Shown piece by piece: positions 11,582 to 60,693 of a stretch of DNA of 64,000 bases. This DNA comes from Dehalococcoidia bacterium (GTDB lineage: Bacteria; Chloroflexota; Dehalococcoidia; Lucifugimonadales; Australimonadaceae): contig DAOUJA010000034.1 of the NCBI GenBank assembly GCA_034423175.1, forward strand, positions 6,379-70,378. Reading direction: 5' to 3'. The notes under the pieces were generated by a model, which was not told the origin of the DNA, searched no databases, and saw nothing but the letters and a program-made list of their open reading frames with translations. The first letter of the stretch is position 1. Each line of letters starts with the position of its first letter. Position numbers and translations under genes: made by a program.

Positions 11582-11649
11582 CGTCATTCCCGCACAGGCA
11601 GGAAGCCAGGGTGCGCGGGCAGCGCACGCGGGGAGGCTGGGTCGGGTGG
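11582..11649 (+). repeat. Family-B REP/MITE-like element
   Basis: cgtcattcccgcacaggcaggaagccagggtgcgcgggcagcgcacgcggggaggctgggtcgggtgg. Confidence 0.8.
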
Positions 11650-11715
11650 CTTCGTCGGCTTGCGTTGCTACCACCATCTCCGCCATCCCGCCACCGCGCG
11701 GGCAGGCTGAAGCCG

Positions 11716-11877: not shown

Positions 11878-11882
11878 TCTGG

Positions 11883-12044
11883 TCACTCGGTGATGCGGAG
11901 TAGAGCAGTGACTATGGCGGCCGTAGAACCTATGCCTGCCAGAATCATAAGGGCAACTTCGGCCTTGGTCGCGTAGTGCTTCAAGGTGCGGTCAAGCTCC
12001 TCCCGCAACTCAGCGCGAGTGATAGGGTGCTCTCCCGTTGACAT
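11883..12044 (-). CDS. Candidate 53-aa peptide: charged N-terminal helix plus a C-terminal TM segment
   Basis: Hand translation: MSTGEHPITRAELREELDRTLKHYATKAEVALMILAGIGSTAAIVTALLRITE. GGAGGG lies about 12 nt upstream of the ATG. Confidence 0.4.
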   Translation of the reverse strand: MSTGEHPITRAELREELDRTLKHYATKAEVALMILAGIGSTAAIVTALLRITE

Positions 12045-12121
12045 GGTCTAACGCTTCCCTCCGCTGCCTTGAATCTCATGCGGAGAATAGCGCAGACGAA
12101 CTGACACTGCCAGGTACGCCC

Positions 12122-13474: not shown

Positions 13475-13583
13475 GGAGCGATGCTACCGCCGCGCCGCGT
13501 CCTTTGCCACAGCGGGGTTCCGGGCGCCTCCGCGATGGCGTTCCCGATGAGCGGAGCGGGCATTGCGAGGCGGGCGAACGCCG

Positions 13584-14870: not shown

Positions 14871-15175
14871 GGGATGTCCCTCCGTGGAAGTGCGTGGGAT
14901 TGTATATCCCTGGCCTCGAACCGGGTCGGCTGGATGGGCCCCCGCGCCCACGCACTCCCCTTCGCGGCGTAGTCATCACAGCGACACTGCTCTATTGCAG
15001 ACCTGAATCGCCTCCCCCATAATGAGGAACTACGCGTACAGCGCGCACCTGACCCTGTCGGACGAGCCGCAGGAAGATCGCTGCCCCCTCAGCGCAGAGC
15101 GAGGGGGCTCTTCATGTTAACCGGCAGCCCGTCATCCCGCTTTCGCGGGGACCCGGAGGCTTTGCCGTTAACGGG

Positions 15176-29701: not shown

Positions 29702-30376
29702 GTGTCAAGGCTCGCAACCAAGAGCATGGTGTTCGAGGGCATCTACGACGTGCCTGAGGCGGCGCGCATACTCAAGGCCGCGCAAGACTCGGACGTCCTC
29801 TACCCTGTCGCTCCCCCCAAGCTCATCCGCTGGATACGCATGGGGATAACCGATCCAGACCTTGCCGACGTCCCCGGACGCGAGTTGCTCATCGCCTTTG
29901 AAGACCTCGTTTCTCTCCGAATCGTCGCAGCATTGCGCGCGGCTGGGGTAGGTTTCTCCCGCATCCATGCTGCGGAATACAAGTTGCGAGAACTGACAGG
30001 TCACCGGCGACCGTTCGCTACCGAGTCGCTCTGGACGGACACGTCAGATGTGTTCACCTGTTTCCGGGGCATACTCCTCGCGGCAAGTCGAGGTGGGCAG
30101 TTAGCTTTGCGCCTAGTGGAAGAACACCTAATCCCTGTCCACGGGCTCGACTTCGCTGAAGGAATCGCTTCCTCATGGAATCCCGTCAGCTTCGTCGTAA
30201 TGCGCCCGGACGTGCAGTTCGGAGCGCCGTGCGTGGATGGAACGCGCATTCCTACGAAGGCGCTGTGGAATTCTTGGCGCGGAGGAGACTCGATGGAACT
30301 GCTGAGCGCCAGTTATGGCTTGTCCATCGAAGAAATCGAGGCCGCCGTCTCTTGGGAGGAGCGGTTAGCTGCCTGA
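29702..30376 (+). CDS. DUF433 domain protein, long form (putative antitoxin)
   Basis: C-terminal QFGAPCVDGTRIPTKALWNSWRGGDSMELLSASYGLSIEEIEAAVSW fits the DUF433 pattern. It carries an extra ~150-aa N-terminal region. Confidence 0.7.
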   Translation: MSRLATKSMVFEGIYDVPEAARILKAAQDSDVLYPVAPPKLIRWIRMGITDPDLADVPGRELLIAFEDLVSLRIVAALRAAGVGFSRIHAAEYKLRELTGHRRPFATESLWTDTSDVFTCFRGILLAASRGGQLALRLVEEHLIPVHGLDFAEGIASSWNPVSFVVMRPDVQFGAPCVDGTRIPTKALWNSWRGGDSMELLSASYGLSIEEIEAAVSWEERLAA

Positions 30377-32983: not shown

Positions 32984-33025
32984 ACGCTGCCCATGATAGC
33001 AGCGCTCCACCTATAATCCCCCCGC

Positions 33026-33394
33026 ATGGCATCGCACCAGGGCACACCAGCAGAAGCGGGAACGGCGGCGCGCAGGGCCGTGGACGCCGCATCGGACAAG
33101 CAAGGCTCCAACATCGTGCTGCTGGACGTGCGCGGCGTATCCGCGTTCGCCGACTACATGGTCGTGCTCACGGCGGGCAGCGTTCGGCAACTCAACGCGC
33201 TCGCGGATGACCTCGTCGAGGCCGTCGAGAAGGCGGGGCTCAGGCTCCATCACCGGGAGGGCTCCGCGGAGTCCGGCTGGGTGCTGCTGGACTTCGGCGA
33301 CGTGGTGGTGCACGTGTTCAGCGAGGAGCAGCGGGACTTCTACCGGCTGGAGCAGGTGTGGCGGGCGGGCAGAGAGCTCGTCAGGATTCAGTGA
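33026..33394 (+). CDS. rsfS: Ribosome silencing factor
   Basis: NIVLLDVRGVSAFADYMVVLTAGSVRQL...WVLLDFGDVVVHVFSEEQRDFYRLEQVW. Confidence 0.88.
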   Translation: MASHQGTPAEAGTAARRAVDAASDKQGSNIVLLDVRGVSAFADYMVVLTAGSVRQLNALADDLVEAVEKAGLRLHHREGSAESGWVLLDFGDVVVHVFSEEQRDFYRLEQVWRAGRELVRIQ

Positions 33395-33836
33395 CCCAGG
33401 GCTCGACCTCGCGGTCGTAGTCCAGCAGTTCGCCGTCCGCGAAGAAGATGGCGAGCTCCCGCTCGGCGGACTCGGGCGAGTCGGAGCCGTGGATGAGGTT
33501 CCGGCCGATGTCCACGGCCATGTCGCCGCGTATGGTGCCGGGCTCCGCGTTCCGGGGGTTGGTGGCGCCCATGGTCTTGCGCACAACCTCCACGGCGTCC
33601 TTGCCCTGCACCGCCATCGCGACGAGCGGGCGGGACATCATGAACGAGGCGAGCCCGGCGAAGAACGGCTTCTCCACGTGCTCCGCGTAGTGGCGCTGCG
33701 CGGTGGGCATGTCCAACTGCATCAGCTTGAGGCCGACGATCTGCAGTCCACGGTTTTCGAGACGCGAGATGATCCTGCCCGCGAGGCCGCGCTGCAGGGC
33801 ATCCGGCTTGAGCAGAACGAGAGAACGCTCGGACAA
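33381..33836 (-). CDS. ndk: Nucleoside-diphosphate kinase
   Basis: ERSLVLLKPDALQRGL...YAEH...GATNP..AEPGTIRGD...NLIHGSDS. Confidence 0.93.
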   Translation of the reverse strand: MSERSLVLLKPDALQRGLAGRIISRLENRGLQIVGLKLMQLDMPTAQRHYAEHVEKPFFAGLASFMMSRPLVAMAVQGKDAVEVVRKTMGATNPRNAEPGTIRGDMAVDIGRNLIHGSDSPESAERELAIFFADGELLDYDREVEPWVTES

Positions 33837-33938
33837 AATTGGTTACTCCTTCGTGCCGCCATACCGGCGGCGGAATCCGTAGGCTATCACACCCGAGCGT
33901 CCGCGAGGTGAGGGCTCCCCTGTTGTTCCTGCCCTTCC

Positions 33939-33979
33939 CGTCATTCCCGCGCAGGCGGGAATCCAGCGAGTGGTGGGCC
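33939..33979 (+). repeat. Family-B REP element, partial
   Basis: ccgtcattcccgcgcaggcgggaatccagcgagtggtgggcc. Confidence 0.75.
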
Positions 33980-34347
33980 AGGCTTCTCCTCGTAGCTGGA
34001 ATTCCTTGTTATCCGTTGCGATGCGTTGCATTCACTCGTAGATGGGCCTTGCTCCGGGCAACGACCGGGCCGCGCTCCGGAACGGCGCCGGTGACGGAAT
34101 GCAACGGCGTTGCAACAGGGGCAACGCGGCTCCGGCAGGGCTGCGTCCCCCGCCGACGTTCCGCCGTCACCACCCAGCGTACGCGGTCGGGGGGGCGGTG
34201 GGTAGGGGCGGATGTCGCATGTTCCAGTCGATGCATTTGGTCGCAATGACTTGCTGCCAGTGGTCGATACGACTGCTAATCTAGGGCGACCGCATCGATG
34301 AGGAGTTACCTCAACTCCGGCGCGGAACTACTTGAGAGGACTGTAGT

Positions 34348-37300
34348 ATGGCGTCCGACAACGTCAGCCTGCTCCCGTTCCGTTGCCTCTCGCTCGACCT
34401 CGAAGTCCTGAAGGACGGCAGCCGCATCCGTGCCTTCGCCGGAGTGCGCTCGGACACCAATCGTTCTTTCTCCTTCTCAGGGACCGGGCACTCATGGGCT
34501 GATGCGTTCGTTAGACTGGACCGCTTTGCCGATGGGGTGGGCTTCCTGCTGGGCCACAACCTGATCGCTTTCGATCTGCCCCACCTGCGCGCTGTGAACC
34601 CAAACCTCCGGCTGCTGCGGCTGCCTGCGGTGGATACGCTCAGGCTGAATCCTCTGGCTTTCCCCCGCAACCCCTACCACCACTTGGTTAAACACTACCA
34701 GGATGGACAGATCAAACGTGGACGCGTCAACAATCCCGAACTGGATGCAAGACTGACGCTGCAAGTACTCGAGAACCAGTTGACAGCATTTCGCGACGCC
34801 CCACCTGGCCTTCTAGCCGCTTGGCACTGGCTGACCACGGTTGAGGACGGCACCGGGTTCGACAAGGTGTTCGGATCACTGCGGGGCTTGCCTCGACCGT
34901 CCAATGCCGAGGGGCACGATGCTATACAGGCACAACTGGAAGGGAACTCCTGCCGGACGCAGGCACGTGAGGTCATGGCGCGTCCGAATGAACATGGCTG
35001 GGCCCTCGCCTACGTGTTGGCTTGGTTGTCCGTATCGGGAGGCAATTCGGTCATGCCTCCCTGGGTGCGGTATCAATTCCCTGAAGCAGGCCAACTGGTG
35101 CGCCTGTTGCGGGACACGCCCTGCGCCGACATCGACTGCTTGTGGTGCGCCGAACGGCACGACGCGCGCAAGGAACTGGCACGCTGGTTCGGGTTCAGTG
35201 GATTCCGTCCTGAGCCTGCGGACGAAGCCGGACGCTCCATGCAGCAGTCCGTCGTAGAGGCTGGGATGGCGGGGGAGCACACACTGGCCATCCTGCCGAC
35301 CGGCGCGGGGAAATCGCTCTGCTATCAGGTTCCAGCGCTGTCCCGTTACGACAAGACCGGCGCATTGACGGTAATCATCTCGCCGCTGGTCGCCCTCATG
35401 GCCGACCAGGTGGCGGGCCTGGAGAAACGGGGCATCGATTCCTGCGTCACTATCAACAGCCTCTTATCCATGCCTGAGCGAGCCGACGCTCTTGACCGGG
35501 TGCGGCTGGGAGACGCCGGGCTCCTCATCATTTCACCTGAGCAGTTGCGCAGCGTTGCCGTGCGCCGCGTTCTGGCGCAAAGGGAGATAGGCACCTGGGT
35601 GCTGGACGAGGCACACTGCCTCTCCAAGTGGGGGCACGACTTCCGGCCGGACTACCGCTACGTCGGGCGGTTCATCCGCGAGCGGGCCGGAAACGAGACT
35701 GTGCCGCCGGTGTTGTGCCTGACTGCAACCGCCAAGCCAGACGTGCAGGCGGAGATTGTTGACTACTTCCAGAGAGAACTCGGAATCGCGCTCAAGGTCT
35801 ACAACGGCGGTACTGAGCGCGCCAACCTCGAATTTACGGTGATACGGACGAGCACCAGCGAGAAGTTCGAACATATCCACCAGATCATAGAGTCCGATCT
35901 GCCGGCGCATGAACCCGGCGGAGCGATCGTCTACTGCGCAACCCGGCGGCACGCTGAACGGGTCGCCGGGTTCCTGCGTGAAAAGGGAATCCAGGCAGAC
36001 TACTTCCACGGGACATTGCCACCGGAGACCAAGAAGAACGTTCAGGAGAGTTTCATCGAGGGCGGCCTGCGCGTCATCGCCGCCACCAACGCCTTCGGCA
36101 TGGGCATCGACAAGCCGGACATCCGCCTCGTGATTCACGCAGACATCCCCGGTTCTCTGGAGAACTACTTGCAGGAAGCGGGCAGGGCAGGGCGCGACCA
36201 GCAGGCAGCTCGCTGCGTACTGCTGTACACGATGGACGACGTGGAGCGGCAGTTCGGGATGTCGGCCCATTCGCGCCTCACACGGCGGGAAGTCCACGGC
36301 GTCCTGAAAGCGCTGCGTAATCTCAACAAGAGGAACCGCTCGAACGGCGAAGTGGTGGCCACATCGGGCGAGATACTCATTGGGGACGAAGACCACGAAT
36401 TCGAGCGCGATAAGGCGACTGACGATACGCGGGTGCGCACGGCAGTAGCATGGCTGGAAGAAGCGCAACTGCTGACACGCGAGGAGAACCGCGTGCAAGT
36501 GTTCCCATCTTCCCTGCGGGTGCGTTCTCTGCAAGAAGCAAACGCCAGGCTCGCCAAGGCGCGCGTAGGGGACGCCGGCCGCCGCCAATTGCTGAAAATC
36601 GCCGAAACGCTGTTCGAAGCGGACCCGGACGAAGGCATCTCAACCGACGAATTGATGTCCGCATCCGGCCTCACTCCCGAAGGAGTACGGAGCGCTCTCC
36701 ATGACCTTGAGCGGCTGGGCATCGCCGCCAACGATACGGCCCTGACCGCCTTCGTCCACGAGAGAGTGAAGGGCAATTCCCGGCAGCGCTTCGATGAGGC
36801 GGCGGAGCTGGAGCGCGCCATGGTCGACCTCTTGCGCGAGACCGCGCCCGATATGGGGATAGGTGAAACGTCCACGCTTTATCTCCGTCAGGCGAGCCAG
36901 CGGTTGAAGGACGACGGCTACAAGAATGCTCTGCCGGAACGCTTGCGCCGCATCGTCCGGAGCATCGCTGCAGACGGTCGTGGCGACGGCGGAGGTGGCG
37001 GCAGTCTCGGCCTGCGCGGGGTGAATCGTGACGCCGTCCAAGTGACACTGCAACGCGAGTGGGGAATATTGGAGAAAACCGCAGGGTTGCGCAGGGCCGC
37101 CGCAGGGCGGCTTCTAGCCCACCTGCGCGCCTGTCTCCCTGCCGGAAGCAGAGGCACGGATCTGCTGGCTGAGACAACCGTCGGAGACCTGCTGAAGGCG
37201 CTCACCTCGGACATGACGCTGATGCAGGAAGTCAGGGAACCCAACAAGTTGATGGATCGTGCGCTGCTGTGGCTGCACGAACAGGATGTGGTCCGCCTGA

Positions 37301-39456
37301 ACAAGGGTCTTGCCGTGTTCCGCCCGGCCATGACCATCCGACTGAAGCAAGAAAGGCGCGGCTTCGCCCGGACCGATTTCGAACCGCTGAATCTCCACTA
37401 CAACGAACAGACGCTCCAGATCCACGTGATGGCGGAATACGCAGTGCGGGGCCTGACAGCCATGGCCGATGCCCTGCGCATGACCGTGGATTACTTCAAC
37501 CTGCGCAAACGGGACTTCGAGCGCCGCTGGCTGCCGGAGCGAGAAAAAGAACTCTTCCGCCAGACCACCCCTGAATCATGGCAGGCCATCGTCGAGAGCC
37601 TGAACAACCCTGTGCAGCGCAGTGTCGTAGCGGACGAAAGGGAGCAGGCCAACGTGCTGGTGCTTGCCGGTCCCGGCTCCGGGAAGACGCGGGTGCTGGT
37701 GCACCGCATCGCCTACCTCGTGCGCGCGATGCGCGAGAACCCCCACTCTATCCTCGCTCTCGCGTACAACAGACATGCCGCCGTAGATATCCGGCGCCGT
37801 TTGGCGGAACTCATCGGCGACGACGCTCGCGGCGTGGTGGTGCTCACCTGCCACGCGCTCGCCATGAGTCTTGCCGGCGCGAGTTTCACAGGGCGTGCGA
37901 ATGACCTGGACGACGCCGAATTCAAAAAGATACTCAAGGAAGCGGTGTCCCTGTTGCGCGGGGAAGGACTGCCGCCCGAGGAAGTGGACGAACAGCGGAC
38001 GCGGTTGCTCGCAGGCTTCCGCTGGATACTGGTTGACGAGTACCAAGATGTCGGCCCCGACGAGTATGCGCTGATCTCGGCGCTGGCGGGCAGGACGCTC
38101 TCCGAAGAAGACGACAAACTGAGCCTCTTCGCGGTGGGCGACGACGACCAGAACATCTATACCTTCAAGGGCGCGTCGGTGCGGTTTATCCGGCAGTTCG
38201 AGAAGGACTACGCAGCCAAACCGGTGTTCCTCACCGACAACTACCGCTCCACCAGCCACATCATCGCGGCTGCAAACGCGATAATCGAACCGGCGAAGCA
38301 ACGGATGAAGAACGGGCATCCCATTCATGTAAACCAAGTGCGTAAGAAGGAACCGCCTGGTGGCGTGTGGGTTCAACGCGATGCGGTTGCGCAAGGCCGG
38401 GTTCAGACATTGCCGGTTGGGGATTCGCGAATCTCCCAGGCGCAGGCAGTCGTCGCCGAGTTTCAGCGACTATCCAGCCTGACACAGGATTGGGATTGGG
38501 CTTCCTGCGCCGTGATAGCGCGCGAATGGAGTTACTTGGACCCGGTGCGCAGCCTCTGCGAGATCAAGGGCATCCCCGTGCAGATGTCGAACGAGGACTT
38601 CTCGGGCATCTGGCGCCTGCGGGAAACGCAGGCTCTCCTGCAGTGGGTGCACGAGCGAGACTCCCGCTTGATAACGAGCGCGGAACTGAACGACTGGCTG
38701 GAAAGGCAAACCTACGGCTCTTGGAACGAACTGCTGCTCGAAGCCGTGGGCGAGTATGCACTGGAGACCGGCGGCGCGGAAACGCCGGTAGCACACTTCG
38801 TCGAGTGGCTGGCGGAATGGGCGCGGGAGGTACGCCGCCGTCAGCGCGGGTTATTGCTGACCACTGCTTATGGCGCCAAGGGTCTGGAGTTCGACCATGT
38901 CGCGGTGCTGGACGGAGGGTGGGAGCGCGTTGAATACAGGGATGCCGATTCCCAGCGCCGGTTGTACTACGTTGCGATGACTCGCGCCCGTCAGACGCTT
39001 ACCCTTGCCCGCTTCCCGAGGCCACACCCATTCCAGGACGCCTTGCCGGACAGCCCGGCAGTGCTACACAGGGATGAACCCTTGTCGCTCCCGGCCCCCG
39101 CGCCGGAACTCACACGCACTTACCGCCGCCTCAGTCTAGGGGACGTTGATTTGGGTTTCGCGGGCCGCAAACGTTCGGCCGACCGTGTCCACCGCGCCAT
39201 TGCCTCGCTTGCACCAAGCGATCCATTGACGGTTCGCGTTCAGTCACACCCCTGGGAGCTTGTGGATTCGACAAGCACAGTGGTGGGGCGACTCGCGCAT
39301 CGCTTCGAGCCCGATGCCGGTATGCGGTGCATCGCCGCCAGCGTCCTTGCGGTTGTCACCTGGAATCACGAGATTTCAAGCCCTGAGTACCAGAGTGGTA
39401 TGCAGTGTGAATCGTGGGAGGTCGTGGTGCCAGAACTGGTATTCGAGCCTGAGTAG
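34348..39456 (+). CDS. 1702-aa fusion: DnaQ-like 3'-5' exonuclease + RecQ-family helicase + ~450-aa unknown linker + UvrD/PcrA-like SF1 helicase + ~140-aa unknown C-terminal domain
   Basis: Exonuclease motifs: LSLDLEV, GHNLIAFDLPHL, NPELDARLT. RecQ motifs: LAILPTGAGKS, LDEAHCLSKWGHDFRPDY, ATNAFGMGIDKPDIRLVIHADIPGSLENYLQEAGRAGRD. UvrD motifs: VLAGPGSGKT, ILVDEYQDVGP, FAVGDDDQNIYTFKGA, LTDNYRST, TAYGAKGLEFDHV, YVAMTRAR. Confidence 0.9.
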   Translation: MASDNVSLLPFRCLSLDLEVLKDGSRIRAFAGVRSDTNRSFSFSGTGHSWADAFVRLDRFADGVGFLLGHNLIAFDLPHLRAVNPNLRLLRLPAVDTLRLNPLAFPRNPYHHLVKHYQDGQIKRGRVNNPELDARLTLQVLENQLTAFRDAPPGLLAAWHWLTTVEDGTGFDKVFGSLRGLPRPSNAEGHDAIQAQLEGNSCRTQAREVMARPNEHGWALAYVLAWLSVSGGNSVMPPWVRYQFPEAGQLVRLLRDTPCADIDCLWCAERHDARKELARWFGFSGFRPEPADEAGRSMQQSVVEAGMAGEHTLAILPTGAGKSLCYQVPALSRYDKTGALTVIISPLVALMADQVAGLEKRGIDSCVTINSLLSMPERADALDRVRLGDAGLLIISPEQLRSVAVRRVLAQREIGTWVLDEAHCLSKWGHDFRPDYRYVGRFIRERAGNETVPPVLCLTATAKPDVQAEIVDYFQRELGIALKVYNGGTERANLEFTVIRTSTSEKFEHIHQIIESDLPAHEPGGAIVYCATRRHAERVAGFLREKGIQADYFHGTLPPETKKNVQESFIEGGLRVIAATNAFGMGIDKPDIRLVIHADIPGSLENYLQEAGRAGRDQQAARCVLLYTMDDVERQFGMSAHSRLTRREVHGVLKALRNLNKRNRSNGEVVATSGEILIGDEDHEFERDKATDDTRVRTAVAWLEEAQLLTREENRVQVFPSSLRVRSLQEANARLAKARVGDAGRRQLLKIAETLFEADPDEGISTDELMSASGLTPEGVRSALHDLERLGIAANDTALTAFVHERVKGNSRQRFDEAAELERAMVDLLRETAPDMGIGETSTLYLRQASQRLKDDGYKNALPERLRRIVRSIAADGRGDGGGGGSLGLRGVNRDAVQVTLQREWGILEKTAGLRRAAAGRLLAHLRACLPAGSRGTDLLAETTVGDLLKALTSDMTLMQEVREPNKLMDRALLWLHEQDVVRLNKGLAVFRPAMTIRLKQERRGFARTDFEPLNLHYNEQTLQIHVMAEYAVRGLTAMADALRMTVDYFNLRKRDFERRWLPEREKELFRQTTPESWQAIVESLNNPVQRSVVADEREQANVLVLAGPGSGKTRVLVHRIAYLVRAMRENPHSILALAYNRHAAVDIRRRLAELIGDDARGVVVLTCHALAMSLAGASFTGRANDLDDAEFKKILKEAVSLLRGEGLPPEEVDEQRTRLLAGFRWILVDEYQDVGPDEYALISALAGRTLSEEDDKLSLFAVGDDDQNIYTFKGASVRFIRQFEKDYAAKPVFLTDNYRSTSHIIAAANAIIEPAKQRMKNGHPIHVNQVRKKEPPGGVWVQRDAVAQGRVQTLPVGDSRISQAQAVVAEFQRLSSLTQDWDWASCAVIAREWSYLDPVRSLCEIKGIPVQMSNEDFSGIWRLRETQALLQWVHERDSRLITSAELNDWLERQTYGSWNELLLEAVGEYALETGGAETPVAHFVEWLAEWAREVRRRQRGLLLTTAYGAKGLEFDHVAVLDGGWERVEYRDADSQRRLYYVAMTRARQTLTLARFPRPHPFQDALPDSPAVLHRDEPLSLPAPAPELTRTYRRLSLGDVDLGFAGRKRSADRVHRAIASLAPSDPLTVRVQSHPWELVDSTSTVVGRLAHRFEPDAGMRCIAASVLAVVTWNHEISSPEYQSGMQCESWEVVVPELVFEPE

Positions 39457-40322
39457 ATTGACGACCTTGGCCGGAAGTACGGAGTGGCTGCGTATCCCTG
39501 TTCGGACTGCTGGCCTTCCGCCTGCGCGGGAACGACATGCGCGACATCTGCCCTTTTCGCGGTCGAGGCCCGACCGCGTACGCTGGTTGCATCCCGCTCA
39601 TCGTGAGCCTGGTCGAACCACATACGTGCAGTAGCCATAGACCGCGTTTTATGGGTCGGGGCCCGCTACACCCGCCATTGGTGCGGGTTTGATATGAAGA
39701 ACGCAGGAAGCAGGCCGTGGCCTTGTCGATATAGATCTGCTGGATGTCGAAATGCCCATTGTTCACTCGTAAGGCGCGGATCAAGAACAGCAGGAAGAAC
39801 GCGCGGCTGCGTCCGGGAGGAGAAGGGCTGCGAGGTCCCTGCCTCCGCAGGAACGACGGGGGTACCCGAGAGACGTTTCGGGTCCACTCAGCATGACAAC
39901 CCATCCTGTGCATCGATGTTGATTCCCGGATTGGTGACACGCGTCCCTTTCGCGGTCGCGGGATGACCGCGTACGCTGGTTGCATGAGCGTCGTACGTGC
40001 AGCAGCCATAGACCGCGTTTATGGGTCGGGGCCGAGCCATAGATCTGGTCTATGGGTCCGGCGCCCAACTTGTGAATTCGTTGGCCACCTTGTTCAGTTT
40101 TCGCGGGAAGCAGGCCGTGGCCTTGCGCAGAGCATCACAAGGTGGCCAAGGTGGCCAAATGAAGGGCCAGATTTACTCGTAACGCCGGCAACAAGGTGGC
40201 CAGATTGCAGGGCCGGTTGGACACCTTGCTCAGGGCTGCGAGGTTCCTGCCTCCGCAGGAACGACGAAAGAGGGCGCAGGATGGTTCGACAGGCTCACCA
40301 TGAGCGGGGCGGCCGTGGGCGG
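39457..40322. repeat. Repeat-dense intergenic region holding at least five REP families, several in two copies
   Basis: Duplicated blocks: ccctttcgcggtcg...gaccgcgtacgctggttgcat (39552 / 39944), gccatagaccgcgtttatgggtcggggcc (39633 / 40005) and gaagcaggccgtggccttg (39707 / 40107). Inverted family-A units at 39826 and 40234. ggttcgacaggctcaccatgagcgg at 40283. Confidence 0.8.
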
Positions 40323-41066
40323 CTAACCGCCTGCGACGGGTTTCGGTGGGCGCGGAGGGGTGATGCGGGGGGAGCGCAGGTAGCGCGGGGCGATGGCCGT
40401 CGCGCCGCCCGCTTCGCCCGAGGCCAGCAGCGCGGCGCCGAGCTCGGCAGCGCCCGCCAGCCGCGCGAGGGGCGCGGACTCGGCGACGAAGCGCGCGTCC
40501 GCGCCCAGGCGTTCGCGGAGGGCGTCGGCAACGTCCGCGACGGACTCGCCGCAGAAGAGCGTCGCGCCGGACTGAGCGGCGGCGGGCGGCGCGGCGGACT
40601 GGGTGGCGGCGGGCTGCGCGGCGGCGAAGTCCGGGATGGGGGAGACCTGCTCGTCGCTCAACGCGCGCCACGCGCCGCCGTCCATGCCGTAGGCAGCCCA
40701 GGCGACGACTCCCCGGCCCGCGGGGATGACGGCGCAGACGCGCTCCACCGATGCCCGGTAGGGGTAGGCCGACGCCTCGAGGGTGCTGACTCCCGCCACG
40801 GGAATGCCCCAGGCGACGGCCAGCCCTTTCGCGACGCCGATGCCGGTGCGCAGGGCGCTGAACCCGCCCGGTCCCACGCTCACGGCGATCCCGTCCAAGG
40901 CGTCCGGCGCGATGCCTTCCGCGTCCGTGAGCCAGCGGACGGCGGGCATGAGCTCCGCGGTGTGGTTGTTCCGGGAGCGCCAGGAGACGACGCGCGCGAG
41001 GCCGTCCCGCCATACCGCAGCCGCTCCATAGCGCGTGGAGGTGTCGATGACCAGGTAGGCCGTCAT
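40323..41066 (-). CDS. tsaB: tRNA t6A37 biosynthesis protein TsaB
   Basis: MTAYLVIDTSTRYGAAAV... and GIAVSVGPGGFSALRTGIGVAKGLA. ATGA overlap with tsaE. Confidence 0.85.
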   Translation of the reverse strand: MTAYLVIDTSTRYGAAAVWRDGLARVVSWRSRNNHTAELMPAVRWLTDAEGIAPDALDGIAVSVGPGGFSALRTGIGVAKGLAVAWGIPVAGVSTLEASAYPYRASVERVCAVIPAGRGVVAWAAYGMDGGAWRALSDEQVSPIPDFAAAQPAATQSAAPPAAAQSGATLFCGESVADVADALRERLGADARFVAESAPLARLAGAAELGAALLASGEAGGATAIAPRYLRSPRITPPRPPKPVAGG

Positions 41067-41536
41067 CCTTCCTCCCCGTTCAGCGCGGCGATCAGGCGCA
41101 CGTAGCGCTCGCCGTGCGGTTCCAGCGTCAGCACCCGGGCGTCCGGCGCGCCGCCGAAAGCGATGCTGACGGCGAGGTGCTCGTCCGGGAAGACGGACTG
41201 CGCCTGCTCCGGCCACTCCACGACGCACGCGCCGTCCTCCAGCATCTCGCCGAACGCGAGGTCGTCTATCTCGAGGTCGCCGCCGTCCATGCGGAAGAGG
41301 TCCACGTGGTAGACGGGGATGCGGCCCCGGTACTCGTGCACGAGCACGAAGGTGGGGCTGTGCGCGTATCCGGTGACGCCCGCGCCCCAGGCGACGCCCT
41401 GCGTGAGGGTGGTCTTGCCCGCGCCGAGCGTGCCGCGCAGCAGGTAGAGGTCGCCGGGCTCCGCGAGCGCGCCGAGCCTCCGCCCGAACGCCTGCGTCTC
41501 CTCGGCGCTGTTCGTCTCGAATCGAGCCTTCGTCAT
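41063..41536 (-). CDS. tsaE: tRNA t6A37 biosynthesis ATPase TsaE
   Basis: LLRGTLGAGKTTLTQG...SPTFVLVHEY...YHVDLFR. Confidence 0.88.
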   Translation of the reverse strand: MTKARFETNSAEETQAFGRRLGALAEPGDLYLLRGTLGAGKTTLTQGVAWGAGVTGYAHSPTFVLVHEYRGRIPVYHVDLFRMDGGDLEIDDLAFGEMLEDGACVVEWPEQAQSVFPDEHLAVSIAFGGAPDARVLTLEPHGERYVRLIAALNGEEG

Positions 41537-48238: not shown

Positions 48239-49057
48239 CTATTCTTCACAGACTATGCCGTCACCATCCCCATCGATTGCGGACGGCACAAGGGCTTGGG
48301 GAAACCCATAGCCGCCGCCAGGATATTCCCCAGTGTATTGATGCCGACCCTGTTCACGGGGCTCGCCGGCCGCATCAGCAGCGGCGCAGGAAACATAGGC
48401 TTTCGGCTCCAGTTTCTCTGTAGGTTCAGCACGCTCGAATAGGCCTACCTGCGAAAACACCGAACGGGAAAGCTCCGTACCGTTTACGCCGCATGCGGAT
48501 GAACCTGCCTGCGTTACTGACGGAGTGCAATGCACCGAACCGCCTTCTACGGATAAAGTTCTCCACTCCTCCTCGGACAAGGGTCCGATCAGAATGTGCT
48601 GGCCACCCCAGTACACATACGCGAATATGTCATTAGTAAAGGTATTCCGCTTCCAAGTGGTATTGGGAGCATCTGGAACCAGATACACCGTAAGGACCTC
48701 TTGATCGCCCGACACGAAAGACCTCGTTATCGGCGTCGGCGTTGGATCAACTGGCAAAGGAGTGGCTATCACTATCGTTGGACGAGGCCTGCCCCATGAC
48801 TCCGGCGTTGGGGTTGATGTGGGCTGTTGCGTTGGAGTAGGTTCGGCTTTCGGTGTTGGACTCAGAACAGCGGGAGTAGACGTCGGGATTGGAACTGCCG
48901 TAGCTGTAGCAGTTGCTGTGGCTATTGCCTTAGCGGTTGCTGTGGCTGTTGCCGTCGGCTCCTCTGTCACGGTCGTCGCGGCAGCGCTGCATCCTGCCAG
49001 AAGCACTCCCCCAACCAGTAGCACAACCGCTATCAACGCTGGCTTCATCACTCGCAT
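48239..49057 (-). CDS. Lipoprotein with a PT/TA-rich linker and a C-terminal Excalibur calcium-binding domain
   Basis: MRVMKPALIAVVLLVGGVLLAGC (lipobox). C-terminal ...IDGDGDGIVCEE. The 3' half is visibly lower in GC. Confidence 0.7.
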   Translation of the reverse strand: MRVMKPALIAVVLLVGGVLLAGCSAAATTVTEEPTATATATAKAIATATATATAVPIPTSTPAVLSPTPKAEPTPTQQPTSTPTPESWGRPRPTIVIATPLPVDPTPTPITRSFVSGDQEVLTVYLVPDAPNTTWKRNTFTNDIFAYVYWGGQHILIGPLSEEEWRTLSVEGGSVHCTPSVTQAGSSACGVNGTELSRSVFSQVGLFERAEPTEKLEPKAYVSCAAADAAGEPREQGRHQYTGEYPGGGYGFPQALVPSAIDGDGDGIVCEE

Positions 49058-49986
49058 ACCACGCCGTCGTTGTCCCGGTCGTCCATGAACCGATAGGCCG
49101 GGTGGCCGCGGGGGACAGGCGCGATGCCGTGACGCCGCGCCTCCGCGCAGGTGATGCGGCCGTTCCCGTTGTCGTCGTACAGCCGCAGGGCATCGACGTT
49201 GGACGCACTCCCTGACGAGGGGGTCGGCGTCGCGACCTGAAGCGCGCGCGAACGGTCGACGACCATCGCGGTCGACGCGCAGCCCGACAGGACGCCTTCC
49301 AACACGTCGCGCTCGCGCCTGTCGATGGTGAGGTTGTACCGCTGGCGCACCTCGACCACGCGGCCCGCGAACCAGCACTGGTTCAGGTCGGGAAGCCACT
49401 CCGCCGCGTCCTTTCCGCTCTTCTGCGAGCGATTGACCGAGGGGCTGGCCAACGTGAGGTTCAGGAGGTCGGAGGAGAACCGGCGCCTGGTCGCAGCGTC
49501 CGTGGCACAGAGGCCGCTGTCGTGCGCCTCCGACCGGGCGATGATGTGCTCGATATCGGTCTGGGAGGTGCTGTCGAACCAGGTGCCCGTGTACGGGCCG
49601 TAGACGATGCCGCCCATGCTCGCCACGATGCGCGGCTCCACCGACTGCGAGTAGGAGTAGTCGTCGGAATCGTATGGCGAGCAGCGATGTTCGGCGGCGA
49701 CGGCAAGTCCCCGCCAGGTACCCGAGCCGACCGTTATCTGCGGCGTCGAGAGTGATAGGACCGGCGTAGGCGTGGCCGCAGGCGGCACGGGCGTGACAGC
49801 AGCGGATGCAGGTGTGGCCGCAGGCGACGCGGGTGTCGCCGTCGGAGCGGGAAGCCGCTGGTCTGCCGGAGGCGGCGTCGGCGTGGGAGTGCTCTGCTCA
49901 CAGGCGATCAGGGTCGCAGCAAGCACCAGGGCAGCGGGTGCGCAGAACCAGAGTCGTATATCTCCAGGTACGGATACGATAGACAC
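49048..49986 (-). CDS. Secreted lipoprotein: DUF1524/HNH-type nuclease domain plus a C-terminal Excalibur domain
   Basis: GTG 49986, with signal RLWFCAPAALVLAATLIAC. DIEHIIARSEAHDSG...NLTLASPSVNRSQKSGKDAAEW is DUF1524-like. C-terminal DDRDNDGVVCE. Confidence 0.7.
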   Translation of the reverse strand: MSIVSVPGDIRLWFCAPAALVLAATLIACEQSTPTPTPPPADQRLPAPTATPASPAATPASAAVTPVPPAATPTPVLSLSTPQITVGSGTWRGLAVAAEHRCSPYDSDDYSYSQSVEPRIVASMGGIVYGPYTGTWFDSTSQTDIEHIIARSEAHDSGLCATDAATRRRFSSDLLNLTLASPSVNRSQKSGKDAAEWLPDLNQCWFAGRVVEVRQRYNLTIDRRERDVLEGVLSGCASTAMVVDRSRALQVATPTPSSGSASNVDALRLYDDNGNGRITCAEARRHGIAPVPRGHPAYRFMDDRDNDGVVCE

Positions 49987-50140
49987 TGGCGAGATTCTAC
50001 TGTGGTCTGCATGAGTTCTACTACAACCGCCGGGGCACTCGAACCTCGGTACGGCACTCACGGGGCATGCGCCCCTTACGAGATACGGGCCGCATCCGCT
50101 ACGCTGGCTACACCGAGCACCGTCCGAGGAGGAGGACAAC

Positions 50141-51106
50141 ATGACCCAGCAGCCCGTTCCCGCGATCCGATTCGGAGCGTCGTGGTCGACGCAGTTCCGG
50201 TTCACGCAGGCCATCGGCCGCGGGCTCAGCGAGCTGAAGCGGGTCGATGCCACGGTACACGTCCTCGGCCCCGGCGGCATGGGCGCGCTCGTCAACGGCG
50301 CGGTGGACGTCATCTTCTCCAAGTGGGTCGTCAACGAGCACCGCTACACGGGCACGGGCATATTCGCCGGGGACAAGCCCGACGACTGGCTGCGGACCAT
50401 CGCGTGGCTACCGCAGGAAGACCGCTTCCTCTTCGCGATGGCCCCGTGGACGGGCATCGAGTCGTTCGAGCAACTCGCGGCTGAGAAGCCGGTACTGCAC
50501 ATGGCGGGGAGCGGCGCCGAGGTCGTGCTCCAGGAGTACGGCTTCAGCTACGCCGACATCGAGCGGTGGGGCGGCTCGGTGGGGCGCATGGAGCACACGG
50601 CGCGCGACGCCAAGGCCCGCTACGACGCCGGACAGCTCGACGCCTTCTGGGGCGACGGCAGCGCGTACGACTTCTCGGCGTGGCCGTGGGTCGGCTCGCG
50701 CGGTTACCGCTTCCTCGACATCAGCGAGGAGGTCATGCAGCGGCTGGAGGCGAAGGGACTGCGACGCCAGGTGACGCCCGCGGGCTTCGTCCCCGGCATC
50801 GACAGGACGCTCACCGCGCTGGACGACTCGCACATCGTGGTGACGTGCCGCGCCGACCTCGACGACGAGCTGGCCTACCTGCTCGCGAAGGCCATCGACG
50901 ACAAGAAGCGGGACATCGAACTGACGTCGATCCAGATCGACTACGACAACGGGGAGGCCGGCGGCCTGCCGATGATCAGGCCGACGTACTGGTCGTCGCT
51001 CACGGGGCCTATCGGCCGCCAGTGGGACGAGGGCATCACGGGCGCACCGCTGCACGAAGGCGCGCGGCGTTACTACCGGGAGCAGGGGTACCTGCAGGGC
51101 CGCTAG
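50141..51106 (+). CDS. Periplasmic-binding-fold protein (TAXI/NMT1-like) without an evident signal peptide
   Basis: 321 aa. The resemblance to TAXI-type solute receptors is weak and pattern-level only (e.g. ...GAPLHEGARRYYREQG at the C-terminus). Confidence 0.5.
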   Translation: MTQQPVPAIRFGASWSTQFRFTQAIGRGLSELKRVDATVHVLGPGGMGALVNGAVDVIFSKWVVNEHRYTGTGIFAGDKPDDWLRTIAWLPQEDRFLFAMAPWTGIESFEQLAAEKPVLHMAGSGAEVVLQEYGFSYADIERWGGSVGRMEHTARDAKARYDAGQLDAFWGDGSAYDFSAWPWVGSRGYRFLDISEEVMQRLEAKGLRRQVTPAGFVPGIDRTLTALDDSHIVVTCRADLDDELAYLLAKAIDDKKRDIELTSIQIDYDNGEAGGLPMIRPTYWSSLTGPIGRQWDEGITGAPLHEGARRYYREQGYLQGR

Positions 51107-57344: not shown

Positions 57345-58757
57345 TTGAACAGCACCGGTTCTCGGCACTATGACGCGGCGATAATTGGCGCTGGCCCAGT
57401 AGGTAGCCTGTGCGCACTCGCCTACGCGCGCAGGGGTGCCCGGGTAGCCCTGTTCGAACAGAACCCCACCGAACATCAAACAGGACTGAAGGGCGAGTGG
57501 CTGCATCCACCCGCCTCGCGGATACTGGAACAGACCGGGGTCCGTTTCGATTCGGAGGCCCACGCCACCAAAGGGTTCGTGGTGTTTCCGGAGGATGGCT
57601 CTGAGCCAATCCCGCTGACCTACCCGGACGGGTCGCACGGCCTGGTATGCCCGCACGAAACCCTCGTCTTGCGTCTGCGCGAGGCTGCCAATGACGAGCC
57701 CAACGTCGACCTCATACAGGCGCGGGCCTACCCGCTCCATGACGGCAGGGTCACCTACGGCCGGGACGGCACCCGGGAATCCGTGACCGCAGACCGGATC
57801 GTCGGCGCAGACGGCCGATCGTCCGCCGTGCTGCGAATGTTGGGGCTGACAACAAAGCCCACGGTCTGTTCGCGCATGATAGGAATCAGGGTGAACGGAG
57901 TGAAGTTGCCCGCGGACGACTACGGGCACATCTTCTGTGGCGGCCCCGGCCCCATATTCATGTACAGGTTGGGAGAGGACAGCGTTTGCGCCATTATGGA
58001 TATCCCGCGCGAATACTCGGGCCGTCACGCCGACGGCCTGTTGTTGAATTCGTATATCCCCTGGCTGCCGCCGGATATCAGATCGTTGTTCGTGGAAGCG
58101 GTGCGCAAGCGGCGCTTCAAGCGCGCCGGAAACATGATCAGACCGCGCATCTCGTACGGTAACTCGCGTTTCGTTGTTATCGGCGATGCGGTCGGGCACT
58201 ACCATCCGATGACGGCGGTGGGACTGACCCTCGGTTTCGGCGATGCCGTGGCGCTGGCGGAGAGCGAGGACTTCAGCGGTTTCGTCGCCAGGCGCTTCGA
58301 GGAGGTCCGCGCGCCCGAGATGCTTGCCATGGGGTTCTATGAGGTATTTGCCGATCATCGGGCCGAGGCAGTGGCGCTCAGGCATGCGGTCTATCGGATA
58401 TGGAGGAAGGGCGGTGGGAACACCGATCGCAGCATCCGTTTGCTCGCTTGTGAAGATACGTCAGAGGCCAGTCTGGGCTTCATCGGCGGCATAGTGGTTG
58501 CCCTGGCTGTTGCGAGAGCGATTCCGATGTCCATGAGCCCACGCGCCTGGCGCCGGGCAGGCGGCATCGTTCATCGCCTTGCCCTTCGCATCGGATGGTT
58601 CATGAGGGCCGTTTGCGAACTACGCAGATTGAGAGCCAGAGGCGAAGTTCGGCACGAGCGATTCCATGGCAGCCTGGAGCGTGCCTTTCTGACCTCCACG
58701 CCACCCCAGGGCCGCTTCAGCCAACCGCGTGACCAGGAGCATGCCGGTGCACCCTGA
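57345..58757 (+). CDS. FAD-dependent monooxygenase, squalene epoxidase-like
   Basis: IIGAGPVG. GEWLHPPASRIL resembles GELLQPGG. VGADGRSS. GDAVGHYHPMTAVGLT resembles GDAxNMRHPLTGGGMT of squalene epoxidases. TTG start. Confidence 0.78.
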   Translation: MNSTGSRHYDAAIIGAGPVGSLCALAYARRGARVALFEQNPTEHQTGLKGEWLHPPASRILEQTGVRFDSEAHATKGFVVFPEDGSEPIPLTYPDGSHGLVCPHETLVLRLREAANDEPNVDLIQARAYPLHDGRVTYGRDGTRESVTADRIVGADGRSSAVLRMLGLTTKPTVCSRMIGIRVNGVKLPADDYGHIFCGGPGPIFMYRLGEDSVCAIMDIPREYSGRHADGLLLNSYIPWLPPDIRSLFVEAVRKRRFKRAGNMIRPRISYGNSRFVVIGDAVGHYHPMTAVGLTLGFGDAVALAESEDFSGFVARRFEEVRAPEMLAMGFYEVFADHRAEAVALRHAVYRIWRKGGGNTDRSIRLLACEDTSEASLGFIGGIVVALAVARAIPMSMSPRAWRRAGGIVHRLALRIGWFMRAVCELRRLRARGEVRHERFHGSLERAFLTSTPPQGRFSQPRDQEHAGAP

Positions 58758-60681
58758 TGCCCATTCCGCCTTGAGGATGGCGACCGAGGGCTTGCTGCAC
58801 CTCCAGGATGAGGATGGCAGCTTTGAGGGTGAAGTGGTGTGGTGCCCCATGCTCTCCGCGCAGTACGTGCTGCTGCACCATATCCTCGGCCGTCCGCTCG
58901 AGCCCGCCCGCCGCCGCGGCGTGTTGCGCTACTTCCAGCGGTCCCGCCTGGAAGGAGGCCTGTGGAGCCTCCACGAGCACGAACCGCCCAGCCTGTTCGT
59001 CACTGCACTGGTCTACGTCTCGGCCAGATTGCTCGGCGTCGAGCGGGAGGACCCGTTGATCGAACCGGCTCGGCGGTTCCTGCAGAAAGAGGGAGTCCTC
59101 GGGATCCCCACCTGGGGTAAGTTCTGGCTGGCGCTTCTCAATCTCTACGACTGGCGCGGCGTCAATGCCATCCTGCCGGAGGTGTGGGGCCTGCCCCGTT
59201 GGATGCCGTTGCATCCTTCGCATTGGTACTGCCATACGCGGCTCATCTACATGGGAATGGCATCCCTTTACGCGCATCGCTTCCAGGCGCCCGTAACGCC
59301 CCAGATCGCCTCCATAAGAGAAGAGCTGTACCCCCAGGGGTTTGCCGACGCCGATTTCGCTGCGAGCCGCAATCGCCTGCGCGACGCCGACCTGCACACC
59401 AGGCCAAGCGTGTGGCTCCGCGCCGGGTTCGGTCTCGCACGCCTCTTCGATCGGTTGCACAGCAAGCGCCTGCGCGCCCGCTACCTGGAGGCGATCGTCC
59501 GCAGCATCAGATGGGAGCTTCAGACCACCAACCATACGAGCATATCTCCCGTCAGCGGGATACTGAACATCCTTGTCCTGTGGCTGCGCGACCCCGAAGA
59601 TGCCGACGGACTCCGCGCCCTCGCACAGTTGGACCGCTGGATCTGGGAAGACGACGAGGGAGGGTTGCGCGTCTCCGGGGCCAGAAGCGCCTCCTGGGAT
59701 ACTGCCTTCGCCTTGCAAGCGCTGTCGACGGCGTCCGAACTCGACGGGGTCCGCGATGCGCTCCGCAGCGGGGCGAACTACCTTCGCGGACAGCAGATCG
59801 GCATCAGCTTCGAAGGGTATCGAGAGGCCTATCGGAACGACCCCAACGGCGGCTGGTGTTTCGCCGCGGGGTGGCACGGCTGGCCGGTGACCGACTGCAC
59901 CGCCGAGGCGGTCCTTGGGCTTCTCTCTGCCGACAGGGACGCAGCGGACGAGACGGCACTGGGCGACGCGGTCCGGTTCATGCTGCGGGGCCAGAATCGA
60001 GATGGCGGTTTCGGCACGTACGAAGCGCAGCGCAGCGTGGTTGGCCTCGAGTGGCTGAACCCGGCCGAGATGTTCGGGGACTCCATGACGGAGCACTCCT
60101 ATGTCGAGTGCACCGCCTCTTGTCTTGCGGCCCTGGCGGCTTGCGGAGAGCGCTTCCCCCGGGTCATCGGCCAGGCGGAAACCAGGGCCATCTCACGGGC
60201 CGACGCATGGCTACGCCGCGCCCAGGAGCGAGACGGCTCCTGGCGCGGGGTATGGGGCGTTCAGTTCATCTATGGCACGTTCTTCGGGATAAGGGGTCTG
60301 CTTGCCGCTGGCGCTCGTCCTGACGATCCAGCCCTGCGCTCGGCCTGCCAGTGGCTACTGGACCGTCAACGGGAAGACGGGGGATGGGGCGAGCACTACC
60401 GGGGTTGCTACACCGGCCGGTACGTCGCGCACGAAGAGGGCCAGGTCATCCAGACGGCGTGGGCAATGATCGCGCTCCTCGAGGCGGGCGCCACGGACTG
60501 GAACGCGATCACGCGGGGCGCTCAGTTCCTCGCAGGCATGCAGAGGGAGGACGGGACATGGCCCAGGCAGGACATGGCCGGGATATTCTTTCGCACCGCA
60601 CTCCTGGACTACGCGCTGTATCGCCAGTATTTTCCCCTGCATGCTCTCGGTCTCTACGCGCAGCGCCGCCTGGCAGACTAG
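58741..60681 (+). CDS. Oxidosqualene cyclase (lanosterol/cycloartenol synthase family)
   Basis: Catalytic motif WHGWPVTDCTAE (DCTAE, not the DxDDTA of squalene-hopene cyclases). QW-type repeats (RDGSWRGVWG, EDGGWGE, EDGTWPR). AGGAG lies before ATG 58741. It overlaps the epoxidase gene end. Confidence 0.88.
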   Translation: MPVHPDAHSALRMATEGLLHLQDEDGSFEGEVVWCPMLSAQYVLLHHILGRPLEPARRRGVLRYFQRSRLEGGLWSLHEHEPPSLFVTALVYVSARLLGVEREDPLIEPARRFLQKEGVLGIPTWGKFWLALLNLYDWRGVNAILPEVWGLPRWMPLHPSHWYCHTRLIYMGMASLYAHRFQAPVTPQIASIREELYPQGFADADFAASRNRLRDADLHTRPSVWLRAGFGLARLFDRLHSKRLRARYLEAIVRSIRWELQTTNHTSISPVSGILNILVLWLRDPEDADGLRALAQLDRWIWEDDEGGLRVSGARSASWDTAFALQALSTASELDGVRDALRSGANYLRGQQIGISFEGYREAYRNDPNGGWCFAAGWHGWPVTDCTAEAVLGLLSADRDAADETALGDAVRFMLRGQNRDGGFGTYEAQRSVVGLEWLNPAEMFGDSMTEHSYVECTASCLAALAACGERFPRVIGQAETRAISRADAWLRRAQERDGSWRGVWGVQFIYGTFFGIRGLLAAGARPDDPALRSACQWLLDRQREDGGWGEHYRGCYTGRYVAHEEGQVIQTAWAMIALLEAGATDWNAITRGAQFLAGMQREDGTWPRQDMAGIFFRTALLDYALYRQYFPLHALGLYAQRRLAD

Positions 60682-60693
60682 GCGCGGGCGGCC

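Follow-up and report, generated by a model that had tools for sequence, protein, structure and literature searches.

Enzymes that join helicase motors to nucleases are known from several systems. In WRN, a DEDD-superfamily exonuclease (an RNase D-like DEDDy domain) lies N-terminal to a RecQ-type superfamily 2 (SF2) motor in one chain, and in DinG of Firmicutes a DnaQ-like (DEDDh) exonuclease is fused to an SF2 motor. RecBCD, AddAB and AdnAB unite two helicase motors and nuclease activity in one DNA-end-processing machine, and RecBCD also acts against phage. Among the helicase and helicase-nuclease anti-phage systems, Nhi and Hna are single-gene analogues. Here we analyse a gene in a stretch of 64,000 nucleotides from a Dehalococcoidia bacterium (contig DAOUJA010000034.1, positions 6,379 to 70,378; the whole stretch is called the window) that encodes an exonuclease-like domain, a RecQ-type SF2 motor and a UvrD-type superfamily 1 (SF1) motor in a single polypeptide. 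The evidence for its acquisition by horizontal transfer is strong, and we tentatively propose that it is a stand-alone, mobile helicase-nuclease acting on foreign or aberrant DNA.

An earlier note on this DNA had likened the product to WRN. The likeness holds for the order of the domains and for the RecQ core, which aligns with that of WRN at E = 2e-48, but not for the rest: the exonuclease of the gene resembles the DnaQ/DinG type and has Asn where the general-base His would be, RQC and HRDC domains were not detected, and the protein, which is bacterial and horizontally mobile, carries a complete UvrD-type SF1 motor and a beta-rich tail besides. The resemblance to WRN is most likely convergent. 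The Firmicute DinG exonuclease is among the best matches of the N-terminus in the PDB, although the sequence similarity is weak, the DinG motor is XPD-like rather than RecQ-like and DinG has no second helicase. RecBCD, AddAB and AdnAB are multi-subunit enzymes with SF1 motors of opposite or matched polarity and RecB-type (PD-(D/E)XK) nucleases, whereas the present product unites an SF2 motor, an SF1A motor and a DEDD-type domain in one polypeptide. With the systems of GajB, DpdF and PsyrT the gene shares its accessory nature, its horizontal transfer and an occasional place in defence islands; it differs in that the matches to these proteins cover no more than the generic motor cores and that their partners (GajA, the dpd cluster and PsyrA) are absent.

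Domain organization of the fusion protein

The gene is an open reading frame (ORF) with an ATG start, which the earlier note had placed at the same coordinates. Its product has six parts: a DEDD exonuclease-like domain, a site of four cysteines (Cys4), a RecQ-type SF2 core, a 445-residue family-specific region, a UvrD-type SF1 core and a 147-residue beta-rich tail. In the following, dN/dS is the ratio of nonsynonymous to synonymous divergence, aa stands for amino acids and AF2 for AlphaFold2.

34348..39456, plus strand: the ORF of 1,702 aa, stop codon included; dN/dS 0.16-0.18 against three orthologs
34348..34797, plus strand: aa 1-150, DEDD (DnaQ-like) exonuclease-like domain, from invariant residues in alignments and a PDB profile search
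34798..35223, plus strand: aa 151-292, helical linker with four invariant cysteines, running into RecQ motif 0 (FGF..FR), from alignments and the secondary structure of a low-confidence AF2 model
35224..36267, plus strand: aa 293-640, RecQ-type SF2 motor, from Pfam, NCBIfam, PDB and alignment
36268..37602, plus strand: aa 641-1085, region specific to the family, mostly helical and with weak signals of winged helices, from cluster and PDB profile searches
37603..39012, plus strand: aa 1086-1555, UvrD/PcrA-type SF1A motor, from Pfam, NCBIfam, PDB and alignment
39013..39453, plus strand: aa 1556-1702, conserved beta-rich tail of unknown fold, from homolog alignment and AF2 strands

Searches of Pfam, NCBIfam and the PDB bore out the five-part reading of the earlier note (exonuclease, knuckle, RecQ, about 450 aa without known motifs, UvrD with tail). 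Pfam called the helicase pairs of both motors (DEAD 297-466 and Helicase_C 506-617; UvrD-helicase from 1087 and UvrD_C to 1554) and made no exonuclease call on the N-terminus, even at E = 10. Conservation was read from an alignment of 46 family members that are 36-75% identical to the query. The helicase signature residues of the two motors are without exception invariant in it, and the invariant set comprises D17, E19, D76 and D133; C202, C259, C264 and C267; K322, DEAH, R613 and R616; and K1113, DEYQD, GDDDQ and R1546. The only name that databases give to the family is 'RecQ family ATP-dependent DNA helicase', which leaves two thirds of the protein unmentioned.

For the N-terminus, the first 292 residues of 19 diverse relatives were aligned and the resulting profile was searched against the PDB. 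The top matches were all DEDD-superfamily exonucleases: 9l85 and 9mrc, both named 'exodeoxyribonuclease III' (E = 8e-4 to 4e-3, with 8e-4 for 9l85), then the DinG exonuclease 8zef (E = 0.0096), Cas2-DEDDh, the exonuclease domains of Pol II and T7 polymerase, and oligoribonuclease. These scores are weak but consistent, and the alignments span the ExoI, ExoII and ExoIII motifs. The motifs of the domain are D17-x-E19, G69-H70-N71...D76, D96-T-L, Y110-H111...K115 and N128-x4-D133. All four acidic DEDD residues are present, and the general-base His of DEDDh enzymes (H-x4-D, five residues before the last Asp) is replaced, position 128 being Asn, Gln or Ser across the family. Because Asn128 aligns with the catalytic His of DEDDh exonucleases in the PDB, the domain is non-canonical as judged from its sequence; the earlier note had already pointed to the N at this place of the ExoIII motif, and the family alignment agrees with it. 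One might speculate that the invariant Y110-H111...K115, just upstream of the third motif, could supply a substitute base.

The earlier note had also described a Cys/His knuckle. Its cysteines C259-x4-C264-x2-C267 are invariant, but its His, H271, is variable, and the fourth invariant residue is C202. The alignment makes a Cys4 metal site, with C202 as the fourth ligand, more likely than a CCCH site; it may bind zinc, or possibly an iron-sulphur (Fe-S) cluster.

The first motor belongs to the RecQ family by NCBIfam recQ_fam (TIGR00614), which passes its cutoff of 219.8 bits with a score of 296.5 over residues 296-642. Its motifs are Q299, the Walker A sequence GAGKS (319-323), DEAH (420-423) and QEAGRAGRD (609-617), and residues 261-664 match PDB structures of RecQ, BLM, RECQ1, RECQ5 and WRN (E = 1e-48 to 1e-61 for RecQ, BLM, RECQ1 and WRN). 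The equivalog for RecQ of the E. coli type, TIGR01389, failed with 331 bits against a cutoff of 640. Since only positions 5-340 of its 591 were matched, the half of canonical RecQ that holds the zinc, RQC and HRDC parts is missing; Pfam detected no RecQ_Zn_bind, RQC or HRDC, and there is no Cys motif after the RecQ core. What the earlier note called a complete RecQ core is thus the two motor lobes without these accessory domains.

The second motor scores above the cutoffs of PF00580 (130 bits), PF13361 (49 bits) and PF13538 (31 bits). Its motifs are Q1090, AGPGSGKT (1107-1114), DEYQD (1230-1234), GDDDQ (1264-1268), R1300, KGLE (1511-1514) and YVAMTRA (1541-1547), and the protein from residue 1081 onward matches PDB structures of UvrD, PcrA and Rep. 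It is not an ortholog of UvrD, PcrA, Rep or HelD by the family models, the pcrA, uvrD and rep equivalogs giving 128-168 bits against cutoffs of 911-1144.

Helicases of the RecQ family and of the UvrD/PcrA/Rep family both translocate 3'->5', and DEDD nucleases take nucleotides off 3' ends. The SF1 helicase, described in the earlier note as 'of presumably opposite architecture', is therefore not opposite to the RecQ motor in polarity. What is unusual is that two motors of the same polarity, from different superfamilies, share one chain. Such a pair is unable to run in parallel on both strands of a duplex as RecB and RecD do: with two motor families that are normally 3'->5', the same-direction co-translocation on opposite strands of RecBCD-type enzymes is not available. 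Two arrangements are possible. The motors may work in tandem on one strand, so that one unwinds and the other clears away RecA or other proteins in the manner of UvrD, or they may pull in opposite directions from an internal entry site.

The two remaining regions have no Pfam or PDB family, in line with the earlier note, which had recognised no motifs in them. In a representative library of 1.84 billion proteins, the middle region (641-1085) found 922 clusters (50% identity) at E <= 1e-3, of which 251 reach E <= 1e-30. Proteins of full length among the matches listed are about 1,670-1,911 aa long and have the region at the same position, where it occupies the place of the RecQ zinc, RQC and HRDC parts. 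Searches of Pfam (E = 10) and the PDB gave it no family, only weak winged-helix matches of the GntR, IdeR and Crp type. The tail (1556-1702) is conserved, with an FAG motif and W1690 in WEV; it had no match in Pfam (E = 10, with 24 tail homologs also scanned singly), and its PDB profile matches were at chance level. AF2 models, built on alignments of 20 close homologs and used for secondary structure alone, indicate a helical linker (aa 151-292) and a tail of strands (predicted local distance difference test, pLDDT, about 53-78 in the tail part); the overall confidence of these models, given below, is low.

Every module seems to be maintained. The dN/dS of the gene is 0.09-0.31 for each of the six regions, from which the gene is judged to be under purifying selection throughout, including the exonuclease-like domain, the middle region and the tail, and the protein to be functional.

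Acquisition of the gene at the ndk-tsaB site

The gene lies between ndk and tsaB. On the tsaB side tsaE and thiL follow, and rsfS is also among the neighbours.

33381-33836, minus strand: ndk
33894..40322, no strand assigned: inserted block of ~6.4 kb relative to empty ndk-tsaB sites, from alignment of empty and occupied sites
33894..34347, plus strand: upstream spacer, with a hairpin like a repetitive extragenic palindrome (REP) at 33940-33967
39457..40322, no strand assigned: downstream spacer, with two copies of a ~400-bp unit of host REP-like hairpins
40323-41066, minus strand: tsaB

Related loci are numbered L001, L002 and so on. In three relatives found via a TsaB search and read as contigs (L018, L019 and L020), the site is empty: the tsaB-ndk gap is only ~100-130 bp, the whole fakA...prpD synteny is kept and mean flank identities to the window are 86.2, 86.4 and 83.4%. 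There, GTGTGATAGGCTACG lies within 8 bp after the tsaB stop and is followed by ndk, and in the window the GTGTGATAGGCTACG motif is at ~33867-33893 with the tsaB stop at 40323. In L010 (= L002) and L011, two other related Dehalococcoidia assemblies, the gene occupies this ndk-tsaB site, so that three of the six genomes are empty. The gene is thus neither universal at this junction nor host-like in composition: its guanine plus cytosine (GC) content is 62.5% against 67.6% in the rest of the window, and its GC at third codon positions (GC3) is 0.75 against ~0.87-0.94 in neighbouring genes, as the earlier note's remark on lower GC had implied.

The insertion is not young. Flanking proteins are on average 89.3% (L010) and 87.9% (L011) identical to those of the window, and the gene product 89.2% and 88.2%. 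Because the synonymous divergence (dS) of the gene, 0.32 and 0.39, falls within the flank range of 0.28-0.60, the insertion predates the split of the three occupied genomes, and a recent acquisition in the window genome is rejected. These genomes share the left junction, TAG followed by CCGCCC, which would fit a single insertion event. In the inserted block we found no target-site duplication at the junctions, no terminal repeats, no recombinase ORF and no tRNA.

The 3.06-Mb contig with the empty site L018 also carries the closest homolog of the gene product, P0001, which is 91.0% identical against 86.2% for core genes. This copy (L001) lies ~420 kb from the empty site between unrelated metabolic genes, and DNA homology between it and the window begins 75 bp before the ATG and ends precisely at the stop codon. 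The empty sites, this second location, the gene-specific GC, the spread across phyla and the plasmid-borne and integrase-linked copies described below together give strong sequence support to acquisition as a single-gene insert, which the earlier note had proposed.

The spacers, of 511 bp and 866 bp, are repeat-rich, and the gene stands alone between them. The earlier note had seen in these repeats the bounds of an island. A REP-like hairpin (GTCGTTCCTGCG[C/G]AGGCAGG and a related TTCCCGCGCAGGCGGGAA form) occurs in 11-14 copies across the window (within 1007-2422, then at 4405, 11091, 11587, 13404, 23125, 33944, 39515, 39838, 40246 and 44235), and the downstream spacer holds a ~400-bp tandem duplication at 39503-40300 with matched sub-blocks 371-408 bp apart. 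At the orthologous loci the upstream spacers are 450 and 775 bp long and the downstream ones 98 bp (L011) and 462 bp (L010), with the ~400-bp unit only partial in L010 (one 98-bp and one 202-bp match); the downstream repeats were therefore added later. Since the hairpins occur window-wide and spacer lengths vary between orthologous loci, the flanking repeats are best read as host REP-like elements accumulated in non-coding DNA and not as ends of a mobile element.

Inverted matches that flank the gene (33940-33967 with 39509-39536; 34171-34191 with 39569-39589) were considered as terminal inverted repeats and rejected, as they are in the wrong relative order, the repeats lie all over the window and the spacers differ between orthologous loci. 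Elsewhere in the window, hairpins at 1812, 2009, 2207 and 2403, spaced by ~197 bp, suggest a tandem array of a longer unit.

The last 75-100 bp of the upstream spacer (34273-34347) are conserved with the L001 copy and for that reason are likely to hold the promoter and ribosome-binding region. No sigma-70 consensus promoter was found in the upstream spacer, promoter and terminator scans of both spacers found nothing, and Rfam found no RNA family in 33000-41200.

Distribution and mobility of the family

The window gene is an ordinary member of a large, uncharacterised family. Among the protein-search matches listed there are more than 100 clusters of ~1,700 aa with 70-91% identity. Copies 58-89% identical come from Dehalococcoidia, Poribacteria, Latescibacterota, Magnetococcales and Aquisalimonas (58-73% in Poribacteria, Latescibacterota and Proteobacteria), and more distant ones from Bacteroidota, Deinococcota and Cyanobacteria. 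The distant members in Deinococcus, Bacteroides and Calothrix have ~24-32% identity in the N-terminal domain, yet keep the same layout in 1,618-1,668 aa. A full-text search of a limited library found no description of an exonuclease-RecQ-UvrD fusion, and an earlier description is possible.

The GC content of the gene is ~0.60-0.64 in most loci (full range 0.55-0.71), whereas that of its flanks goes from 0.50 in Latescibacterota and Poribacteria to 0.69 in the lineage of the window. Because the gene is above its host in some cases and below it in others, these values mark a gene that circulates with its own composition. It is carried by 24-26 plasmid records, from Thiothrix, Cereibacter, Rhizobium, Microvirga, Paracoccus, Croceicoccus, Sulfitobacter, Allochromatium, cyanobacteria, Bacteroides and Deinococcus. 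The carriers include megaplasmids or chromids of 0.3-2.2 Mb in Rhizobium, Paracoccus, Cereibacter and Croceicoccus, and most carrier plasmids are typed as non-mobilizable. In Deinococcus sp. AJ005 the gene is directly beside a replication initiator gene. No relative of the middle region was found in 50,697 phage records.

Genomic contexts

In all of the ~20 contexts read the gene is solitary, with no recurrent or conserved partner gene. Several of these contexts are rich in defence or mobility genes. In L016 the gene is part of a defence island (292-14929), between a type IIG restriction enzyme and HEC-01A/B (285 and 182 bits) on one side and SoFic (406 bits) on the other; a Peptidase_M78 (RmrA-like) gene with a DUF4411 gene is also found in this island. 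A type I restriction-modification system starts one gene away in L014, and WYL and Cas6 genes lie ~3-4 kb away in L012. Toxin-antitoxin genes are nearby in L001, L013, L021 and L023, insertion sequence (IS) elements in L022 and L023, and resolvases with an HNH protein in L009. In L015 and L028 the gene is the first cargo gene and is followed by a tyrosine integrase and then tRNA-Ala, which is the arrangement of a classic integrated island, and L028 has a type ISP restriction enzyme further upstream in the same locus.

These two islands (1-14726), integrated at tRNA-Ala(cgc), have further cargo of their own: a GT4-conflict glycosyltransferase, a radical SAM/SPASM protein, a methyltransferase and a histidine phosphatase, to which L015 adds a Fic protein and L028, instead, its type ISP restriction enzyme. 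This set may be a DNA- or glycan-modification module.

Against PADLOC 2.0 the best matches of the protein were DpdF (384 bits), PsyrT (300 bits) and GajB (164 bits), all to generic motor cores. The protein is not a Dpd component: NF041063 for DpdF gives 208.6 bits against a cutoff of 550, and the neighbours are ndk, rsfS, tsaB and tsaE. A partner of the Gabija or PsyrTA type (the GajA OLD nuclease or the PsyrA antitoxin) was found neither in the window nor in the ~20 related contexts. The defence reading of the earlier note thus gained some copies in defence islands and no named system.

Function of the fusion protein

The reading that we prefer, at a little below an even chance, is that of a stand-alone, horizontally mobile helicase-nuclease acting on foreign or aberrant DNA; a defence role is plausible from context and domain content. 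The protein would attack the DNA of invading elements much as the helicase-nuclease defence systems of one or two genes do. Gapped or branched DNA, or DNA that ends in a 3' single strand, would be its loading site; replicating phage and plasmid DNA and recombination intermediates are rich in such structures. Driven by ATP, the two 3'->5' motors would then unwind the DNA and strip bound proteins, and the N-terminal 3'->5' exonuclease-like domain would trim or degrade the exposed 3' strand. As a net effect, replication or recombination of the foreign DNA would be aborted, and the protein would serve by itself as an immune factor or as one directed at mobile elements. What we infer in this scheme is which substrates are used, that the exonuclease is active and that the phenotype is one of defence.

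Several points weigh against it. For a defence gene, the conservation of the family is unusually high, with ~70% identity across phyla, a fixed architecture and a housekeeping-like dN/dS, and the gene is stably inherited at one site in three genomes of the lineage of the window. Without a canonical general-base His, as its sequence reads, the exonuclease-like domain may be inactive or serve binding only. The AF2 models, with a mean pLDDT of 56.6 (aa 1-700) and 46.3 (aa 620-1702), are of low confidence and hence lend no structural support. The association with defence genes is no more than suggestive in the ~20 contexts read, and no PADLOC 2.0 model was matched end to end, nor any named system. 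Other settings are ordinary, with housekeeping or DNA-repair genes as neighbours: the window itself; L024, where nfo and ssb are no more than ~7 kb away; and L017 and L027, where the gene adjoins ogt, NurA being close by in L017.

These last settings bear on the main rival reading, the role of an accessory genome-maintenance enzyme, a bacterial WRN analogue combined with a UvrD-like anti-recombinase, which would act on stalled forks, gaps and illegitimate recombination intermediates of the host or of large replicons and would have spread as a useful self-contained repair module. Besides ogt, NurA, nfo and ssb, a topoisomerase and RNase HI lie near the gene in L022, and repair and the suppression of recombination are classic tasks of RecQ, UvrD and 3'-5' exonucleases alike. 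The housekeeping-like constraint, the divergence of the gene together with its flanks, its very high conservation in a fixed architecture, its carriage on megaplasmids and chromids and the repeat-dense host genome all speak for such a role. Yet the gene is patchy even in close relatives, as the empty sites show, has a GC content of its own, is found in defence islands and in islands carried by an integrase, is part of no repair operon and shows no sign of SOS-type regulation. We regard a repair function as possible but doubtful.

A more ambitious form of the proposal for a family of defence helicase-nucleases is that its members make up a new class of machine that acts in immunity or against mobile elements from a single polypeptide, and in which SF2 RecQ-type and SF1A UvrD-type 3'->5' motors, a DEDD nuclease of non-canonical type and a Cys4 module (with Zn or Fe-S) form a one-gene cassette that spreads among co-resident bacteria of many phyla. 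Its dual-motor mechanism would be unlike that of RecBCD-type enzymes; for example, both strands might be reeled in from an internal entry site, or recombinases might be stripped while the invading 3' strand is degraded. At this strength we consider the claim rather unlikely.

The gene might instead serve the mobile elements that carry it, as a factor for plasmid or island maintenance, replication or counter-defence that processes the replication intermediates of the element or removes host nucleoprotein barriers, and the chromosomal copies would then be remnants. The many plasmid copies, the replication initiator gene next door in Deinococcus sp. AJ005 and the integrase-proximal cargo position in L015 and L028 agree with this, and PcrA/UvrD-type helicases drive rolling-circle plasmid replication. 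The copies in the window, L001, L017 and L027, however, stand alone without element genes and are nonetheless intact and under purifying selection; most carrier plasmids are non-mobilizable, the gene is in no conjugation or replication operon, and phage records hold none. It is because intact solitary chromosomal copies stay under selection that this role is the less likely one, and we give it a low probability.

A reading of the fusion as an artefact of annotation or assembly, or as a pseudogene in decay, for which only the non-canonical exonuclease motif could be cited, has practically no probability and is refuted by the uninterrupted frame, the many clusters of like length and identity, the layout shared by the full-length members listed, the invariant catalytic motifs and a dN/dS of ~0.17.

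Other features of the window

A DUF433-domain ORF (29702-30376, plus strand) is followed by small ORFs up to ~30665, between degV and a UPF0102 gene, with a GC3 of 0.68 against ~0.9 in the host. At the same place L018 has a DUF433 gene and a 99-aa ORF, and L010, L011, L019 and L020 have nothing. The region looks like a second, small variable islet, possibly with a toxin-antitoxin pair. At 49048-50331 (minus strand), in a bin whose GC is locally lower (0.637), a 427-aa protein combines a GmrSD_C (HNH-type nuclease) domain with a C-terminal Excalibur calcium-binding domain and may be a secreted nuclease. A segment of lower GC (0.61-0.645) at 58729-63980 encodes a squalene-hopene cyclase, a 677-aa GPP34-cytochrome P450 fusion, which is unusual, and an MMPL/sterol-sensing-domain transporter; it is probably a cluster for synthesis and export of hopanoids or triterpenoids.

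Significance

The combination of motors is without description in the literature searched. It is a natural covalent pairing of RecQ and UvrD that could be used to study how two motors of the same polarity cooperate, and cultured carriers exist in Cereibacter, Rhizobium, Allochromatium, Thiothrix, Bacteroides and Nostoc. The protein also offers a bacterial counterpart to the exonuclease-helicase logic of WRN. Should the proposed function be confirmed, the family would be a widespread one-gene helicase-nuclease system, with 922 clusters over many phyla for the middle region alone.

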